9,491 bases of DNA from a virus (lineage: Duplodnaviria; Heunggongvirae; Uroviricota; Caudoviricetes). This document shows positions 1 through 8,603 of this stretch, piece after piece. Position 1 is the first letter of the stretch; each line of letters starts with the position of its first letter. Location of the stretch: the IMG/VR virus record IMGVR_UViG_2619619129_000006; one strand, given 5' to 3'. Position numbers and translations under genes: made by a program. The notes beneath the pieces are model-generated. The model was not told the DNA's origin and made no database searches. It was given only the letters and a program-made list of their open reading frames with translations.

Positions 1-735
<735 letters not shown>

Positions 736-737
736 CT

Positions 738-1070
738 ATGTCTGTCACAATTCAGGGAAATACCTCAACCGTTATTTCAAACAACTCCGCCCCGGAAGGA
801 ACATCAGAAATAGCCAAAATCACAAGACAAATTCAGGTGCTGACTGAAAAGCTTGGGAAAATCTCATCGGAAGAGGGGATGACGACACAGCAGAAAAAAG
901 AAATGGCTGCATTGGTACAGAAGCAAATTGAAAGCCTCAGGGCTCAACTGGAGCAGTTGTTAAGGCAGCAGGCAGAGAAAAAGAATAAAGACGCGACAGT
1001 TCAGCCTGATAAAAAAGAAGAGAAAAAAGACGATACAAATACCGCTGGCACCATTGATATTTACGTCTAA
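738..1070 (+). CDS. flxA: FlxA (Qin-prophage protein, FliA-regulated in K-12; function unknown), 110 aa
   Basis: ATG 738 to TAA 1068-1070; translation MSVTIQGNTSTVISNNSAPEGTSEIAKITRQIQVLTEK...TAGTIDIYV, 110 aa, matching my memory of FlxA sequence and length. The track ORF 666-1070 is the same frame read through from inside IS5. Confidence 0.85.
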   Translation: MSVTIQGNTSTVISNNSAPEGTSEIAKITRQIQVLTEKLGKISSEEGMTTQQKKEMAALVQKQIESLRAQLEQLLRQQAEKKNKDATVQPDKKEEKKDDTNTAGTIDIYV

Positions 1071-1299: not shown

Positions 1300-2950
1300 C
1301 CAACTTCCGCTTCTTGCTCTTAGCGGACATTAGCATAGGCTATTTACCATAACGCCTCATTACGCGCACCGCCCAGACTGACTCAGCGCGTTTCTGGCAT
1401 ATCCCCGGTAAAACAAGTAACAAACCACCCGAAAATGAACACCAGAAACGCGACTTAAGAATCTACCCTATGAATGGATATGCACTCAACCGAATCGATC
1501 TTGGTTTCAATCTTTTTTATCGGGATCAGGCTTCTTTTTAGGTAACTTCGGGGGCTTAACTTGCTGATGACTTTGCGTTCGGCGCGTAAGCCAGGGATGG
1601 TCAGCTTTAGGTTTAACATAGTATTTTGAGCGTAAATCAATACGGGCATTATCCACTCGTTCATGGACACTCTTTTCATCATCCAGTGGTATAGGCTCCG
1701 GGCCATCAACATACTTTTCCCAGCCCAGCGCTTTCCCGTCATACAGAACGTTAATTTCACCGTCAAAGTTCTCGCATACAGTAACAACCGAATGCCTAAG
1801 TCGATATCCCCGGCCCTCACTGCGTACCTGAAACGCACTGCTTTTGTACTGGAAAGTGAGATTTTTAGACAGAACGCGCTTCGCCTGTAGGCTGAAGATA
1901 TAACCCAGTTCCTCTTCAGAATGGTGCACATCAAGATGAGCATTATCAGTAGTACGAGGCGACGTAGCGAACCGGTTGTTATAGGCTTCAATAAAGGTCG
2001 GCAACCATGCATTTGCTGTTTCAATATCACTGATATTCTGAAGCCGCATTTCTTTGACCAGCCTGTCCTGTAGTGTCTGATTGGCGCGCTCTACCCGCCC
2101 TTTTGCCTGCGGGCTGTTGGCATGGATTGGCTCGATGCCCAGTGTCTTTATCGCACGAGTGAACTGGGTCAGCTCACCTTCCCGCTCTGGGTTATTTACC
2201 CTGAATATACTGTGTCTATCAGAGTAGAGAGCGAGCGGTACGCCATGATCATTAAGGTAACCCCGGAGGGTTTCCATGTAAGCCCGGGTTGTTTCAGCAG
2301 GCACAAAACGCAACGCCATCAACGCACTGGTGGCATCATCAATGAAAACGATCAGTGTACATCTGGGGCCTCGATTTTCAAACCAGTCATGAGGTGAGCC
2401 ATCAATCTGGATCAGTTCACCGTAAGATGGTCGTCGCATGCGGCGTTGATATATACGGGCAATTTTACGACGGCGTTCACGCCATACCCCCCTCTTCTAT
2501 CATCCACTTTCTGAGAGTTTCAACGGATAAAGATAAACCGTGTATCTCGCGCAATTTTTCGCACGCAAACGTAGGTCCAAAATCAGCGTAACGGCCTTTG
2601 AGGAGTGAAATTACTGTTGCTCTGAATTCAGTAGAAAAGGAATTATTAGGACGCTTTCCACGTCGGTGGGAAACCAGACCAGAAGGCCCTTCATTTCTAT
2701 ACCGTTGCACCAGACGTTTAACCTGCCGAATAGAAATGCCAATGCGTGCCGCAGCTTGTTCCTGAGTAATATGTCGATTAATTGACTCCTGAATAATCTG
2801 AAGTCGGTGGAGTTCCTTATGACTCATCGTAACAGTTTCTTTGGTCATGAAAAATCCCCCAGAGAATTGTCTGGGGACATTTTAGAATGGTTCAAAGGGG
2901 ACATTACAGCTTGGTGTTAACAATAGCCTGCTTCTCCTTGCCTTTCGGCA
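1300..2950 (-). mobile_element. Insertion-sequence-like unit around the frameshifted DDE transposase; ends NOT determined
   Basis: A transposase gene flanked by non-coding DNA between flxA and the prophage early genes. I could not identify convincing terminal inverted repeats or a target-site duplication by eye; the coordinates are only a bracket. Confidence 0.35.
1507..2848 (-). pseudogene. IS481/ISNCY-like DDE transposase (N-terminal HTH + integrase-core domain), split by a frameshift in a G6 homopolymer
   Basis: Track ORFs 2477-2848 (123 aa, HTH-like: ...AARIGISIRQVKRLVQRY...) and 1507-2439 (310 aa, integrase core: IQIDGS...VFIDDAT...YSDRHSIF...SPQAKGRVER) are on the same strand in different frames. 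Hand translation shows the second frame is open back to a TAG at 2497-2499, just upstream of the run CCCCCC at 2487-2492 (+ coords). Removing one G would fuse them into one ~446-aa protein (...WMIEEGVWRERRRKIARIYQRRMRRPSYGELIQIDG...). Family assignment is by motif pattern only. Confidence 0.7.
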
Positions 2951-3182
2951 CGTAAGAGGCTAACCTACATGTGTCTGGCATGAAATTGGCCTCAGATTAA
3001 TGTTAAGCGTCTTGCAGGACGCGTAATGTTAACTGGGGCTTTTCTCTACCTGCCGTTGGTGTTCGTGCCCGAGGCAGATAGCCTCAAGCACCCGCAGTCA
3101 TTCTACTTAACTAAGATTTCCCCGCAAACCGTTTTTGTCCAGCACAGTAAATATCCAACTAAACCAATGGAGTTCGCTGTAT

Positions 3183-3362
3183 TTACCGCCAGTATTCAAT
3201 GCACATGACCGCCATGAACACCCCTAAAAAAAGGGCATTTATATATCCAAATATTAATATCAAAACATCAACTTTTTCCATATACCTTGCTGTGAAGATG
3301 ATGGGCATACATGATGCGAACAACCAGAACGCAACAAACAAAAACTGCAATGCGTTTTTCAT
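3183..3362 (-). CDS. Candidate small membrane protein (59 aa, two predicted hydrophobic helices), function unknown
   Basis: ATG at 3362-3360 preceded by GGAGGA (+ coords 3366-3371 as TCCTCC) with a 3-4 nt spacer; translation MKNALQFLFVAFWLFASCMPIIFTARYMEKVDVLILIFGYINALFLGVFMAVMCIEYWR. The track ORF 3183-3401 is the same frame from an upstream GTG. Lies in AT-rich DNA, where hydrophobic ORFs can arise by chance. Confidence 0.35.
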   Translation of the reverse strand: MKNALQFLFVAFWLFASCMPIIFTARYMEKVDVLILIFGYINALFLGVFMAVMCIEYWR

Positions 3363-3616
3363 TATTCCTCCTACAATCAATGTGCAATTACATTTAAACA
3401 CACCTCAATTTGGCCGGACATATAAATATCTAAACCAGAAAAAATCACTTACATAGCGTTACAAACTCTTTAGTCTAAAGGTTCATCGTAAAACATTCCC
3501 CATACTTATCAGTCCGTTCCGCGCCAGGTAGCTCATTGCCTTATCTGGCAACCTGTAATCAGGTTTCCGCTTTTTCAGTTGGCTGGTCGTTTAACCGACA
3601 TAGTTAACCCATTAAT

Positions 3617-3904
3617 CTAGTTGCCGGATGTTGGTGGATTTTCGCGTTTTAGTTGTTCATAAAAGTGCACAGCTTTAACCAATTCTTCTGATGTAACCGG
3701 GACTGGTGAGGCAGTGAATAAGGCCTGAATTTGATAGTTCGGCCTGTCGTTACAATCCTCTTTTTTCGGTACATATTTCCAGTCACCAGACCACTACTTC
3801 CCCTGAAAGTCCGTAACGCCTTTTTTCACGTAGCGATATCGCCATGTCACTGGTTTTGCTTCCCCCGCCGTTTCATGCCCTTCCTGATAATTAATCTCGC
3901 TCAT
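3617..3904 (-). pseudogene. Short nin-like ORF interrupted by an in-frame TAG (36 codons, TAG, 58 further open codons)
   Basis: ATG 3904-3902 overlaps the upstream frame's TGA (ATGA). MSEINYQEGHETAGEAKPVTWRYRYVKKGVTDFQGK, TAG at 3796-3794, then the same frame continues WSGDWKYVPKKEDCNDRPNYQIQALFTASPVPVTSEELVKAVHFYEQLKRENPPTSGN to TAG 3619-3617. Confidence 0.3.
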
Positions 3905-4092
3905 TCATCGCCCCACTCATCACAATATGCTTCGACCGGAGTTTTTCCCGCTTCATAGTCATCACGCTAGGATTCGACATCAGCAGCACTTCCACCGCGT
4001 AACTCACCATAGTCCATTAATAGTTCATCCCGCTCTTCAAAACTGATGTTATATTTAGCTGAACAAAAATCAGCCACTTTGTTCTTCCTCAT
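3901..4092 (-). pseudogene. Short nin-like ORF interrupted by an in-frame TAG (41 codons, TAG, 21 further open codons)
   Basis: ATG 4092-4090: MRKNKVADFCSAKYNISFEERDELLMDYGELRGGSAADVES, TAG at 3969-3967, then the same frame continues RDDYEAGKTPVEAYCDEWGDE to TGA 3903-3901, which overlaps the next ORF's ATG. Confidence 0.3.
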
Positions 4093-6296: not shown

Positions 6297-6798
6297 AATT
6301 CCATCCAGCTTTTTGTTGGTATTGCTGTCGATACGCAAGCTTGAAAGCAATTGCTTTTTCTATAAGTTCGTCAGTTTCACGATCCACTACGGCAGGATCA
6401 GCAAAAAGCAGTCCGGACTCCACCACATCGCCATATTCTTTGTTTAACCCGGCGATCATGCACGTGATGCTTTTTCCGTCAGTAATTTCACGATACAACC
6501 TGAAATCACTAATCCGGATAGCCTCCATAATCGCAGGCACTAGCGCCGTGAACTTTTCACGCTTATCCCTGGTGTCGATAGCCTTCCAGCGTTCGAATAT
6601 CTTCACTCGATTAACACCAAGCGCTCGCTGATCAACCGCGCCACCTTCATCTGTGACACGCTGAACATCGATGTTCGGGCGCTCTTTCAAAGCCCAGAAT
6701 GCTTCAGTGATTAATATCGTCGCCTGCTCCTGTGTCATTCCTGGTCGACATATCCAGGCATCCAGAGCCTCACGAGCCTGTTCAGGAGTGATTTTCAT
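6277..6798 (-). CDS. Hypothetical protein at the cII position between the cro-like gene and the O-like gene (173 aa)
   Basis: Track ORF; ATG 6798-6796 preceded by a G-rich SD-like stretch; overlaps dicC by 17 nt and the O-like start by 20 nt. MKITPEQAREALDAWICRPGMTQEQATILITEAFWALKERPNIDVQRV... I suspect it is the intact form of the K-12 ydfX pseudogene but cannot confirm. Confidence 0.55.
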   Translation of the reverse strand: MKITPEQAREALDAWICRPGMTQEQATILITEAFWALKERPNIDVQRVTDEGGAVDQRALGVNRVKIFERWKAIDTRDKREKFTALVPAIMEAIRISDFRLYREITDGKSITCMIAGLNKEYGDVVESGLLFADPAVVDRETDELIEKAIAFKLAYRQQYQQKAGWNYEPSFC

Positions 6799-7009
6799 TG
6801 TTCAACCGCCCCGCCCGCTTCGTCTTACGATATTCATCATAAACTTTGGGATCATACTGAAGCTCCCCGCCAGATGCCTCCTGTAGACGCATCGCGCGAC
6901 CTTCAGGAACCAGTATCCCCCAAGCAGCAACACTTGCCAGCCTCACTCCTGCGGCATTGGCAAGCTTTGTTTTGCTGCCAAAAAAAGTAATTGCGTCAAC
7001 TTTAAGCAT
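6782..7009 (-). CDS. dicC: DicC, Cro-like repressor
   Basis: ATG at 7009-7007 (track ORF starts 3 nt upstream at a TTG); MLKVDAITFFGSKTKLANAAGVRLASVAAWGILVPEGRAMRLQEASGGELQYDPKVYDEYRKTKRAGRLNNENHS; ~76 aa, divergent from dicA, as in the K-12 Qin prophage. Confidence 0.85.
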   Translation of the reverse strand: MLKVDAITFFGSKTKLANAAGVRLASVAAWGILVPEGRAMRLQEASGGELQYDPKVYDEYRKTKRAGRLNNENHS

Positions 7010-7021
7010 CAAATCCCCCTC

Positions 7022-7089: not shown

Positions 7090-7497
7090 ATGGATACAAG
7101 AACCCTGGGCCAGCGAGTTCTGGCGCGACGAAAAGAATTACGCTTAACACAACGAGAAGCCGCGCGCCTCGCTGGAGTTGCTCACGTCACAATTTCACAA
7201 TGGGAAAGAGACGAAACCCAGCCAGTCGGAAAACGATTGTTTGCTTTAGCGGATGCTCTGAAGTGCTCACCTACATGGCTAATGTTTGGTGACGAAGACA
7301 AGGCACCAGTGCCTGCACAAGAACTTCATGTGGAAACAGAGCTAACTCCCAACCACAAAGAATTGATCGAATTATTCGATGCTCTTCCATCTTCCGAGCA
7401 GGAAGCCTTGCTGTCTGAAATGCGCGCAAGAGTAGAAAACTTCAACAAACTCTTCGAAGAAATGCTTAAAGCGCGTAAAAATAAATCAATAAAATAA
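7090..7497 (+). CDS. dicA: DicA, cI-like HTH repressor of the dicB operon (135 aa)
   Basis: Track ORF; MDTRTLGQRVLARRKELRLTQREAARLAGVAHVTISQWERDETQPVGKRLFALADALKCSPTWLMFGDEDK...; HTH_XRE-type N-terminus; length and context match DicA. Confidence 0.9.
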   Translation: MDTRTLGQRVLARRKELRLTQREAARLAGVAHVTISQWERDETQPVGKRLFALADALKCSPTWLMFGDEDKAPVPAQELHVETELTPNHKELIELFDALPSSEQEALLSEMRARVENFNKLFEEMLKARKNKSIK

Positions 7498-8376: not shown

Positions 8377-8434
8377 TTTCTGGTGACGTTTGGCGGTATC
8401 AGTTTTACTCCGTGACTGCTCTGCCGCCCTTTTT
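8377..8434 (+). ncRNA. dicF: DicF small RNA (antisense regulator of ftsZ), including 3' U-tract
   Basis: TTTCTGGTGACGTTTGGCGGTATCAGTTTTACTCCGTGACTGCTCTGCCGCCC followed by TTTTT matches my memory of the 53-nt DicF sequence; position between ydfC and dicB matches K-12. Confidence 0.85.
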
Positions 8435-8603
8435 AAAGTGAATTTTGTGATGTGGTGAATGCGGCTGAGCGCACGCGGAACAGTTAAAACCAAAAACAGT
8501 GTTATGGGTGGATTCTCTGTATCCGGCGTTAATTGTTAACTGGTTAACGTCACCTGGAGGCACCAGGCACCGCATCACAAAACTCATTGTTGAGGGCGCG
8601 ATA

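Follow-up and report, generated by a model that had tools for sequence, protein, structure and literature searches.

A 59-codon reading frame in a Qin/Kim-type prophage of Escherichia coli very probably encodes a tiny two-helix membrane protein

A 59-codon open reading frame (ORF) on the minus strand of a prophage-derived stretch of Escherichia coli DNA is very probably a real gene, and its predicted product is a tiny two-helix membrane protein. The stretch, which we call the window, is the whole 9,491 nucleotides analyzed. The first-pass annotation of this DNA had proposed just such a gene, small, prophage borne, and specifying a two-helix membrane protein, and this core proposal has held up: there is a 59-residue paralogue, the dN/dS between the two is about 0.19, and 113 of 115 copies keep the frame open throughout. 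Conservation of the frame in related prophages had been named beforehand as the test by which the proposal could be refuted, and conservation was found. Annotation systematically misses small hydrophobic proteins, and the gene described here is invisible in the RefSeq records that we inspected and has a wrong-strand annotation in two phage records.

Results

Prophage setting and the adjacent hok/sok locus

Its gene and RNA content identify the window as a lambdoid E. coli prophage of the Qin/Kim type (Table 1). The match to DicF RNA together with the DicA- and DicC-like ORFs indicates that it comes from a Qin-like element. A FlxA-like ORF was also recognized, and early genes (DUF977, methyltransferase, and YdaT-like) lie on the minus strand of the window. 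In intact prophages, the order is a phage gene of unknown function, the 59-codon ORF, hok/sok, (rem), a hypothetical gene, DUF968, rusA, and Q, and from this order the ORF is codirectional with the rightward early block. The first-pass annotation had placed the ORF between an IS-like unit and decayed nin-like ORFs, which is correct as far as it goes but omits the truncated hok/sok locus that separates the ORF from the IS.

Table 1. Positions of the ORF, its signals, and neighboring features in the window
Feature	Position	Strand	Basis or remark
FlxA-like ORF	666-1070	+	By reading
ISNCY-family IS	about 1507-2922		
Complete hok mRNA leader/sok antisense region	2922-3093	-	Rfam RF01794, 99.8 bits, E = 3e-22
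Putative hok promoter, TTGCGG-16 nt-TAGAAT	3100-3127	-	Recognized by reading; absent from the consensus-scan list
59-codon CDS (lineage A), product MKNALQFLFVAFWLFASCMPIIFTARYMEKVDVLILIFGYINALFLGVFMAVMCIEYWR	3183-3362	-	ATG 3362-3360, TAA 3185-3183
Hydrophobic helix 2, codons 33-55	3198-3266	-	Invariant L36, F38, G39, N42, A43, L44
Antisense 85-codon shadow ORF	3199-3456	+	"Hypothetical protein" or "hornerin" in phage records; judged spurious
T7 homopolymer run in the CDS	3226-3232	-	Several frameshifted database variants arise there
Hydrophobic helix 1, codons 4-24	3291-3353	-	Invariant W13, S17, C18, P20, I21, I22, T24
120-nt leader, from the stop of the upstream decayed phage gene (TGA 3485-3483) to the ATG	3363-3482	-	
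Shine-Dalgarno AGGAGGA	3366-3372	-	Spacer to ATG of 4 nt (AATA)
13-bp palindrome CTTTAG-N-CTAAAG (T at N here)	3468-3480		Just past the stop of the upstream gene
DicC-like ORF	6782-7012	-	By reading
DicA-like ORF	7090-7497	+	By reading
DicF RNA	8378-8429		RNA match

The hok leader begins about 90 nt past the stop of the 59-codon ORF on the same strand, and the hok coding sequence is absent. In an alignment, the window tracks intact hokD loci up to "...GCAGGCTAT" (base 2923) and then becomes IS, with the break between 2923 and 2922, where the IS starts; the hok coding sequence is therefore cut at its start codon. This truncated hok/sok leader represents an IS-mediated inactivation of a type I toxin in which the antitoxin region remains. 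We also asked whether an insertion had divided a single locus into the leader in the window and the relE-linked hokD of Qin; a simple split is unsupported because both junctions share the same ~17 nt (AGGAGAAGCAGGCTAT).

At every lineage A locus examined (we use lineage A for the ORF of the window and its close relatives), hok/sok adjoins the 59-codon ORF. The putative hok promoter lies about 7 nt 5' of the start of the Rfam leader and begins 56 nt past the ORF stop, and on reading of the sequence the hok promoter region comes directly after that stop. We considered the ORF as a part of hok/sok or as a hok leader peptide and rejected both because the Rfam leader lies 90 nt downstream, the paralogue described below has no hok, and selection acts on the protein sequence of the ORF. 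The ORF is separate from the hok/sok RNA element.

A strict consensus scan, which weak promoters may escape, found no promoter-like site between positions 2850 and 3750. The consensus scan likewise gave no terminator-like site by the ORF, and the sole one on the minus strand is inside the IS. From the position in the early block and the lack of a detectable promoter or terminator of its own, we infer that transcription of the ORF would occur mainly after induction, together with the delayed-early genes.

The ORF, its start signals, and the nearby palindrome

The first-pass annotation had claimed a 59-codon minus-strand ORF opening with an ATG at 3362, and this ORF is present. It had also described a strong Shine-Dalgarno sequence at a near-optimal distance; the sequence itself (AGGAGGA) stands, and the 4-nt spacer is a bit under the optimum yet functional. 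In some relatives of the ORF the Shine-Dalgarno sequence is AGGGGGA. The AT-rich islet in which the ORF had been said to sit is evident, with a GC content of 0.37 in the ORF and 0.36 in positions 3101 to 3500 versus 0.46 in the whole window. The 120-nt leader that separates the ORF from the upstream gene can be aligned with the leader of the paralogue.

In dinucleotide shuffles of the 400-nt islet, an ATG-initiated ORF of at least 59 codons on either strand occurred in 17% of the cases, and the same length plus an SD-like 4-mer occurred in 0.7%. T-rich DNA, moreover, specifies hydrophobic residues automatically. The existence of the 59-codon ORF is by itself weak and not compelling evidence for a gene.

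The palindrome CTTTAG-T-CTAAAG to which the first-pass annotation had drawn attention is also present and is statistically unremarkable: the window holds 21 palindromes with 6-bp arms and a spacer of 0 to 3 nt versus 9.7 +/- 2.9 in mononucleotide shuffles. Of 79 related copies, 35 have a disrupted outer pair, and the lineage B counterpart of the palindrome is CTTCA-GTT-TGAAG, with one compensatory pair. We rejected it as a regulatory site because it is no rarer than the other palindromes of the window and its conservation is partial; it is weak and probably has no function by itself. A plus-strand terminator-like hairpin at 3550 to 3575 was rejected as the end of an antisense RNA because it sits in the coding tail of the upstream gene; the related copy L002 does not conserve it, and sites of this kind occur at the chance level. 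Hairpins across the stop codon gave nonsignificant z-scores in both lineages.

A second lineage and selection on the protein

Our first searches returned only near-identical E. coli and Shigella proteins, several of them frameshifted at the T7 run or cut by an IS. An exhaustive HMMER search of 1.84 billion representatives then yielded a 59-residue homologue that is 41% identical to the product of the ORF without gaps (E = 1e-8), and a profile search placed this homologue in a second E. coli lineage, lineage B (P0046), with at least 1000 contigs. Lineage B lies between ttcA and uspF, which we take to be the Rac attachment region, in a decayed prophage remnant. Its annotated neighbors there are all pseudogenes (an integrase fragment, a DUF1627 fragment, and a broken metal ABC transporter permease gene), and it is the sole intact ORF found in the remnant. 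Beside lineage B, hok/sok gave no Rfam signal at E <= 10. A decayed hok 3' of the paralogue, suggested by a shared 10-mer (AAAAGCCCCA), was rejected because there is no Rfam signal at that cutoff and no Hok-like ORF.

The two lineages offer the main test of whether the ORF is translated or is a chance frame in a T-rich, AT-rich spacer, conserved by recent spread or by constraint at the DNA or RNA level. Across the ORF, lineages A and B are 59% identical in nucleotides with no indels and with identical start and stop positions, and the differences fall 25/17/31 on the three codon positions. The values of pS (0.72) and pN (0.34) correspond to the dN/dS given above, a single pairwise comparison with saturated synonymous sites because just two lineages are known, and pS/pN is the highest of the six frames. 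The excess of synonymous differences is significant (Fisher p = 8.7e-5). Under simulated neutral divergence, the start, the stop, and the open frame were retained in 0.3% of the cases.

These comparisons bear directly on the chance reading. It is favored by the 17% of shuffles that reach such a length, by the lack of a PGAP CDS in the records read and of homologues beyond E. coli and Shigella, by the lineage A polymorphisms described below, and by the flanking leader DNA, which can also be weakly aligned between A and B. Against it, the start, stop, length, and frame were kept despite a 41% nucleotide difference, the synonymous excess (p = 9e-5 when rounded) is strongest in the frame of the ORF, and identity is 59% within the ORF versus 26 to 52% in the flanks even when gaps are allowed there. 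In an unbiased sample, gathered by an upstream DNA pattern independent of the ORF, the frame was open in all but two of the 115 lineage A copies, although AT-rich DNA is prone to stop codons, and just one copy was truncated. A chance ORF is thus very unlikely.

Variation within each lineage was also compared with that of the surrounding DNA. In a lineage A sample in which intact copies are overrepresented, the ORF is the least variable part of the locus (2.8 versus 5.6 to 14.6 substitutions per 100 bp), and in lineage B the ORF has 1 variable site versus 4.7 expected from the flanks (P = 0.05). The variable sites of lineage A are all nonsynonymous (10/10, with 0 synonymous), comprising the common variants A16V, V31I, I37M, Y40H, and M53T, which are conservative substitutions, and five singletons. 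This polymorphism departs from the long-term dN/dS (MK-like p = 0.03). The all-nonsynonymous pattern fits recently relaxed constraint or slightly deleterious variants in a cryptic prophage, and it fits diversifying selection equally; within lineage A alone, the coding signal is ambiguous. Given the comparison of the two lineages, we conclude that the 59-codon frame is, or was until recently, under purifying selection at the protein level.

Distribution and annotation

The DNA of the lineage A locus (positions 3100 to 3600 of the window) occurs in 1585 of 5426 complete E. coli genomes, and that of lineage B occurs in 1045 of the 5426, including APEC O1 and JJ1886. No homologue beyond E. coli and Shigella was present among the 1.84 billion protein representatives, and a DNA-level profile scan with one genome per species found Shigella and E. 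coli alone. Within this coverage, the 59-residue proteins appear as a family that has no curated model, is restricted to E. coli and Shigella, and is split into two diverged lineages.

RefSeq (PGAP) has no CDS over the ORF in the 7 records whose feature tables were read (3 lineage A genomes and 4 lineage B records). For the lineage B ORF, there is no annotated feature among the matches listed or in the four records read. Scattered GenBank submissions call the 59-codon ORF a "hypothetical protein" or a "membrane protein." One GenBank record, that of phage PhiR42_1 (PV340562) of E. coli ECOR13, matches a 401-nt query at 100% and has the same gene arrangement, IS included. Literature searches on peptide strings, on hok-adjacent small ORFs in lambdoid nin regions, and on PhiR42_1 found no description of the ORF.

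In two of the three GenBank phage records with lineage A DNA (PV340562 and ON470612), it is the antisense 85-codon ORF that is annotated, as a "hypothetical protein" and as "hornerin." This ORF is longer than 59 codons, and the gene callers of the depositors picked it. If it were the true gene, its frame should be kept in relatives; instead, it shrinks to 63 residues in L002 and to 27 residues opposite lineage B. On reading, its ATG has no Shine-Dalgarno sequence, its pS/pN is about 1.1, and it opposes the direction of the operon. The nonconserved frame effectively refutes the antisense ORF as a gene, which makes it an extremely improbable candidate. Neither this ORF nor a 72-residue GTG-start form of the 59-codon ORF is conserved in lineage B.

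The predicted protein

The first-pass annotation had read two hydrophobic segments in the product, and both are there, at about residues 4 to 25 and 33 to 55, with a GRAVY of 1.27 and Kyte-Doolittle maxima of 2.3 and 2.4 in 15-residue windows. An AlphaFold2 (AF2) model gives a helical hairpin with helices at 2 to 26 and 28 to 58 and a mean pLDDT of 74. The charges are +1/+2 at the N terminus, 0/-2 in the loop, and 0 at the C terminus (IEYWR), and by the positive-inside rule they suggest a topology with both termini inside and the loop in the periplasm. Residues M1, L5, L8, W13, S17, C18, P20, I21, I22, T24, L36, and F38 are invariant between lineages A and B, as are G39, N42, A43, L44, E56, W58, and R59 in the C-terminal part. 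In the second helix, the spacing is G39-x3-A43-x3-G47. The conserved residues do not lie on one helical face (P = 0.65 and 0.92, combined 0.91), and so we do not claim a packing model.

Searches of Pfam, NCBIfam, PHROGs, PADLOC, and PDB sequences with the 59-residue form, the 72-residue form, and a profile gave no match, the cutoff for Pfam and NCBIfam being E <= 10. PADLOC gave nothing at E <= 10 for either lineage, and PHROGs gave nothing for lineage A. Compared with BFVD by Foldseek, the AF2 model returned matches at E > 1 only, which are uninformative; a bare hairpin does not discriminate between folds.

The first helix contains a sequence, LFAS|C, that conforms to the lipobox rule, and the product might be the precursor of a tiny lipoprotein: residues 1 to 17 would be a type II signal peptide, with cleavage before the invariant Cys18 leaving a 42-residue lipid-anchored peptide with one C-terminal transmembrane (TM) helix, an unusual combination for a microprotein. 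The rule (K/R in the first 7 residues, 6 uncharged residues before the box, Cys at 15 to 35, and the pattern [LIVMFWSTAG]2-[LIVMFYSTAGCQ]-[AGS]-C) is satisfied in both lineages, by LFAS|C in A and IVIS|C in B. Of the 66 family variants starting at the conserved Met, 62 conform as well. S17 and C18 never vary, and the common A16V change stays in the allowed set. However, about 9% of composition-preserving shuffles of helix 1 contain a lipobox by chance. A polar linker is usual behind a lipobox; here, the residues after the Cys (MPIIFTA and VPIILTS) are hydrophobic and on reading prolong a 22-residue segment of TM length, and the AF2 model has one unbroken helix from 2 to 26. With these points on the two sides, we regard a lipoprotein as rather improbable.

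Discussion

We consider it probable that the ORF genuinely encodes an integral protein of the inner membrane, 59 residues long, a two-helix hairpin encoded in the early region of a Qin/Kim element, with a nonlytic role that is our guess. Such a protein would consist of a pair of hydrophobic helices with a short polar loop between them, probably with both termini in the cytoplasm and the loop in the periplasm, and it would insert into the inner membrane and act there. The lineage A site is in the rightward early (nin-equivalent) region, codirectional with the cro-like, replication, and Q genes.

The first-pass annotation had raised morons, small membrane toxins, and superinfection exclusion peptides as candidate roles. 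As to function, we tentatively suggest, with more doubt than confidence, that the product interferes with other phages at a step in the membrane (superinfection exclusion) or acts as a modulator of a host protein in the inner membrane. DicB of Qin is a precedent for exclusion by a small protein. We prefer exclusion or modulation to a free-standing lytic toxin because lineage B is intact and has no recognizable antitoxin in more than 1000 genomes; the proposed function is a guess because the protein has no tie to functionally characterized families.

The toxin alternative is that the product damages membranes, as a pore-forming or depolarizing protein of the GhoT/OrtT or type I-like kind or as a pinholin-like protein, during lytic growth or abortive infection. 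Its size and two-helix architecture are like those of GhoT (57 residues, 2 TM helices), and helix 2 carries the conserved polar Asn42 and the GxxxAxxxG spacing. Such a role would also explain the position beside hok/sok at all of the lineage A loci examined, and disrupted alleles are present in databases. On the other hand, 98% of copies are intact, the protein has no similarity to the GhoT/OrtT, Hok, or holin families, and there is no recognizable antitoxin partner or antisense RNA. The ORF is outside the lysis cassette, and its product has no holin-type charged C-terminal tail. An unguarded toxin is hard to reconcile with an intact lineage B that has no hok in 1045 complete genomes. We therefore hold a toxin to be quite unlikely and keep exclusion or membrane modulation as the preferred role.

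A bolder reading, which we think unlikely, makes the protein the founding member of a hitherto unrecognized, lineage-restricted family of host-beneficial prophage membrane microproteins, maybe lipid anchored with a single TM helix after cutting at Cys18, of which lineage B would have been domesticated at ttcA-uspF. The benefit might be, for instance, a block to the DNA entry of rival phages or the tuning of an inner-membrane protein of the host. On this reading, lineage B would have persisted beyond the remainder of its prophage in roughly one-fifth of sequenced E. coli.

In our view, the protein represents a family that is new and unnamed but known in kind, the small prophage membrane proteins, for which databases hold sporadic "hypothetical protein" entries. 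The gene overturns nothing known and is no surprise in kind. Should it prove to be translated, the prophage-encoded membrane microproteins would gain a new family. The gene would then offer an experimentally accessible candidate for exclusion of phages or modulation of the membrane by Qin-like prophages, and it would illustrate the retention of a prophage gene after the decay of its element. Annotation pipelines should call the 59-codon ORF, and the antisense "hornerin" CDS should go.

Comparison with known systems

Among known systems, GhoT/OrtT (Toxin_GhoT_OrtT; a type V toxin and its orphan homologue) is similar in size (57 versus 59 residues), in having two helices and a short polar loop, and in its enterobacterial host; the likeness is one of architecture alone. 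BLASTP against GhoT gave no alignment at E <= 100, and the 59-residue protein has no Pfam match at E <= 10. Its gene also differs in being prophage borne, with no GhoS-like partner evident.

With Hok/Gef, the protein shares the character of a small hydrophobic membrane peptide, and lineage A is physically linked to a hokD-type locus. Hok itself, from a family of proteins of about 50 residues, crosses the membrane once and carries a conserved tail in the periplasm. In contrast, the 59-residue protein has two hydrophobic segments and no Pfam Hok match, and its ORF is outside the hok leader, about 90 nt upstream, with a paralogue that has no hok.

DicB of Qin and HK97 gp15 are small prophage-encoded exclusion or modulator proteins. 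The product of the ORF resembles them as a small protein of a lambdoid or cryptic prophage with a possible action at the inner membrane, but no sequence relation was found in the PHROG and PADLOC searches, and DicB is not known to be a membrane protein. More broadly, known antiphage defense and superinfection exclusion families gave no PADLOC or PHROG match at E <= 10.

Class II holins and pinholins (S21) are likewise phage encoded and small, with two TM helices, and share the small-xxx-small spacing in helix 2. The 59-codon ORF differs in sitting between the replication genes and Q rather than in the lysis cassette, and its product has neither a charged C-terminal tail nor a dual-start motif. 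There is no Pfam or PHROG match to holin families, and the fold search shows holins at E > 4 only.

Rz1, colicin lysis proteins, entericidins, and u-spanins share the lipobox-compatible N terminus and the invariant Cys. The u-spanin layout is a lipobox plus a C-terminal TM helix. Unlike these small lipoproteins and u-spanins, the product of the ORF would have a mature part of 42 mostly hydrophobic residues, too short to bridge the periplasm, and it has no sequence similarity to them.

In base composition, the ORF is like a moron (GC of 0.37 versus 0.46 for the window). It has no promoter or terminator of its own in the scan and lies inside a codirectional early block, so under the strict definition this copy is, on sequence grounds, not a classical moron. 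By sequence, the protein is a member of none of these groups; it resembles GhoT/OrtT and class II holins in architecture and prophage accessory genes in location.

Conserved and variable sites within the 59-codon ORF

In both the window's form of the 59-codon ORF (lineage A) and its diverged paralogue (lineage B), the lipobox rule for lipoproteins is satisfied around S17-C18 (LFAS|C and IVIS|C). Public databases hold a number of protein variants, the 55-aa "...GVHGGHVH" forms, that are frameshifted at the T7 run, whether by sequencing error or by real slippage; these come mostly from automated read-archive assemblies. In the IMG/VR sample, only 1 of 115 copies of the ORF was truncated. On the opposite strand lies a shadow ORF that two phage records annotate, PV340562 as "hypothetical protein" and ON470612 as "hornerin". 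The shadow ORF lacks conservation, being 63 aa long in the related locus L002 and 27 aa opposite lineage B, and the annotation in both records is probably a mis-annotation.

Features of the window and of the lineage B locus L205
Feature	Location	Strand	Basis or remark
hok mRNA leader/sok antisense region, complete	window 2922-3093	-	Rfam RF01794, 99.8 bits
Putative hok promoter, TTGCGG-16 nt-TAGAAT	window 3127-3100	-	sequence reading
Antisense 85-codon shadow ORF	window 3199-3456	+	
T7 homopolymer run inside 59-codon ORF	window 3226-3232	-	
Codon 18, Cys	window 3309-3311	-	invariant S17-C18, with surrounding codons 8-18
Upstream "nin-like" reading frames, decayed	window 3483-3960	-	several in-frame stops
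DicF sRNA, full length	window 8378-8429	+	Rfam, 76.7 bits
STnc100-like match, sub-threshold	window 8441-8581	+	38.4 bits versus gathering score of 47
Extended -10-like motif, TGaTATAAT	L205 4918-4926		sequence reading
Lineage B ORF, 59 aa, 41% identical to lineage A	L205 5001-5180 (also L204-L211, L214-L217)		between ttcA and uspF, E. coli chromosome

Flanking sequences in the two lineages

The first-pass annotation had described the nin-like ORFs upstream as decayed, and the in-frame stops bear this out. Their intact counterpart in L002 encodes a 328-aa phage protein, which matches only PHROGs of unknown function. The leader of the 59-codon ORF is always joined to the last ~10 codons and stop of this upstream gene, and a trace of these codons and stop is retained in lineage B.

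Lineage B is the sole intact ORF found in a decayed prophage remnant at ttcA-uspF; the genes annotated beside it survive as pseudogene fragments (integrase, DUF1627, and metal ABC permease). Lineage B DNA occurs in 1,045 of 5,426 complete genomes, and no annotated feature covers the ORF in the records seen. A consensus scan listed no + strand promoter upstream of it.

Residual DNA similarity between the lineages extends ~40 nt beyond the stop codon. In each, an imperfect hairpin of ~45 nt straddles or follows the stop (window 3094-3190; L205 5175-5300), with the sequence GGUAAAUA...UAUUUACU in lineage A. The folding z-scores of these hairpins (-0.8 and -0.6) were not significant.

A hok/sok locus truncated by the IS

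The hok coding sequence is missing from the window, the ISNCY-family element having cut exactly at the start codon (junction 2923|2922). The orphan antitoxin/leader is what the IS insertion left of the hok/sok locus. We compared this junction (window 2860-3000) with the related loci L001 (11300-11470) and L002 (5570-5740). The Qin-type relE-linked hokD shares with a normal hok leader only its last ~17 nt (AGGAGAAGCAGGCTATG), and the window's truncated leader ends in the same 17 nt. Because both carry this sequence, the idea that the leader and the relE-linked hokD are simple halves of one split locus is not supported.

Relation to Qin-like elements

The STnc100-like match lies directly downstream of DicF; strong STnc100 copies occur near iraM in L002 and in another related locus, L003. 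A 401-nt query matched PV340562.1 (Escherichia phage PhiR42_1) at 100%. The phage comes from E. coli ECOR13 and was deposited as a "complete genome"; its gene order around the 59-codon ORF is that of the window, including the IS, flxA, ydfV, and relBE-hokD. The window's layout may therefore belong to a Qin-like element that is still inducible.
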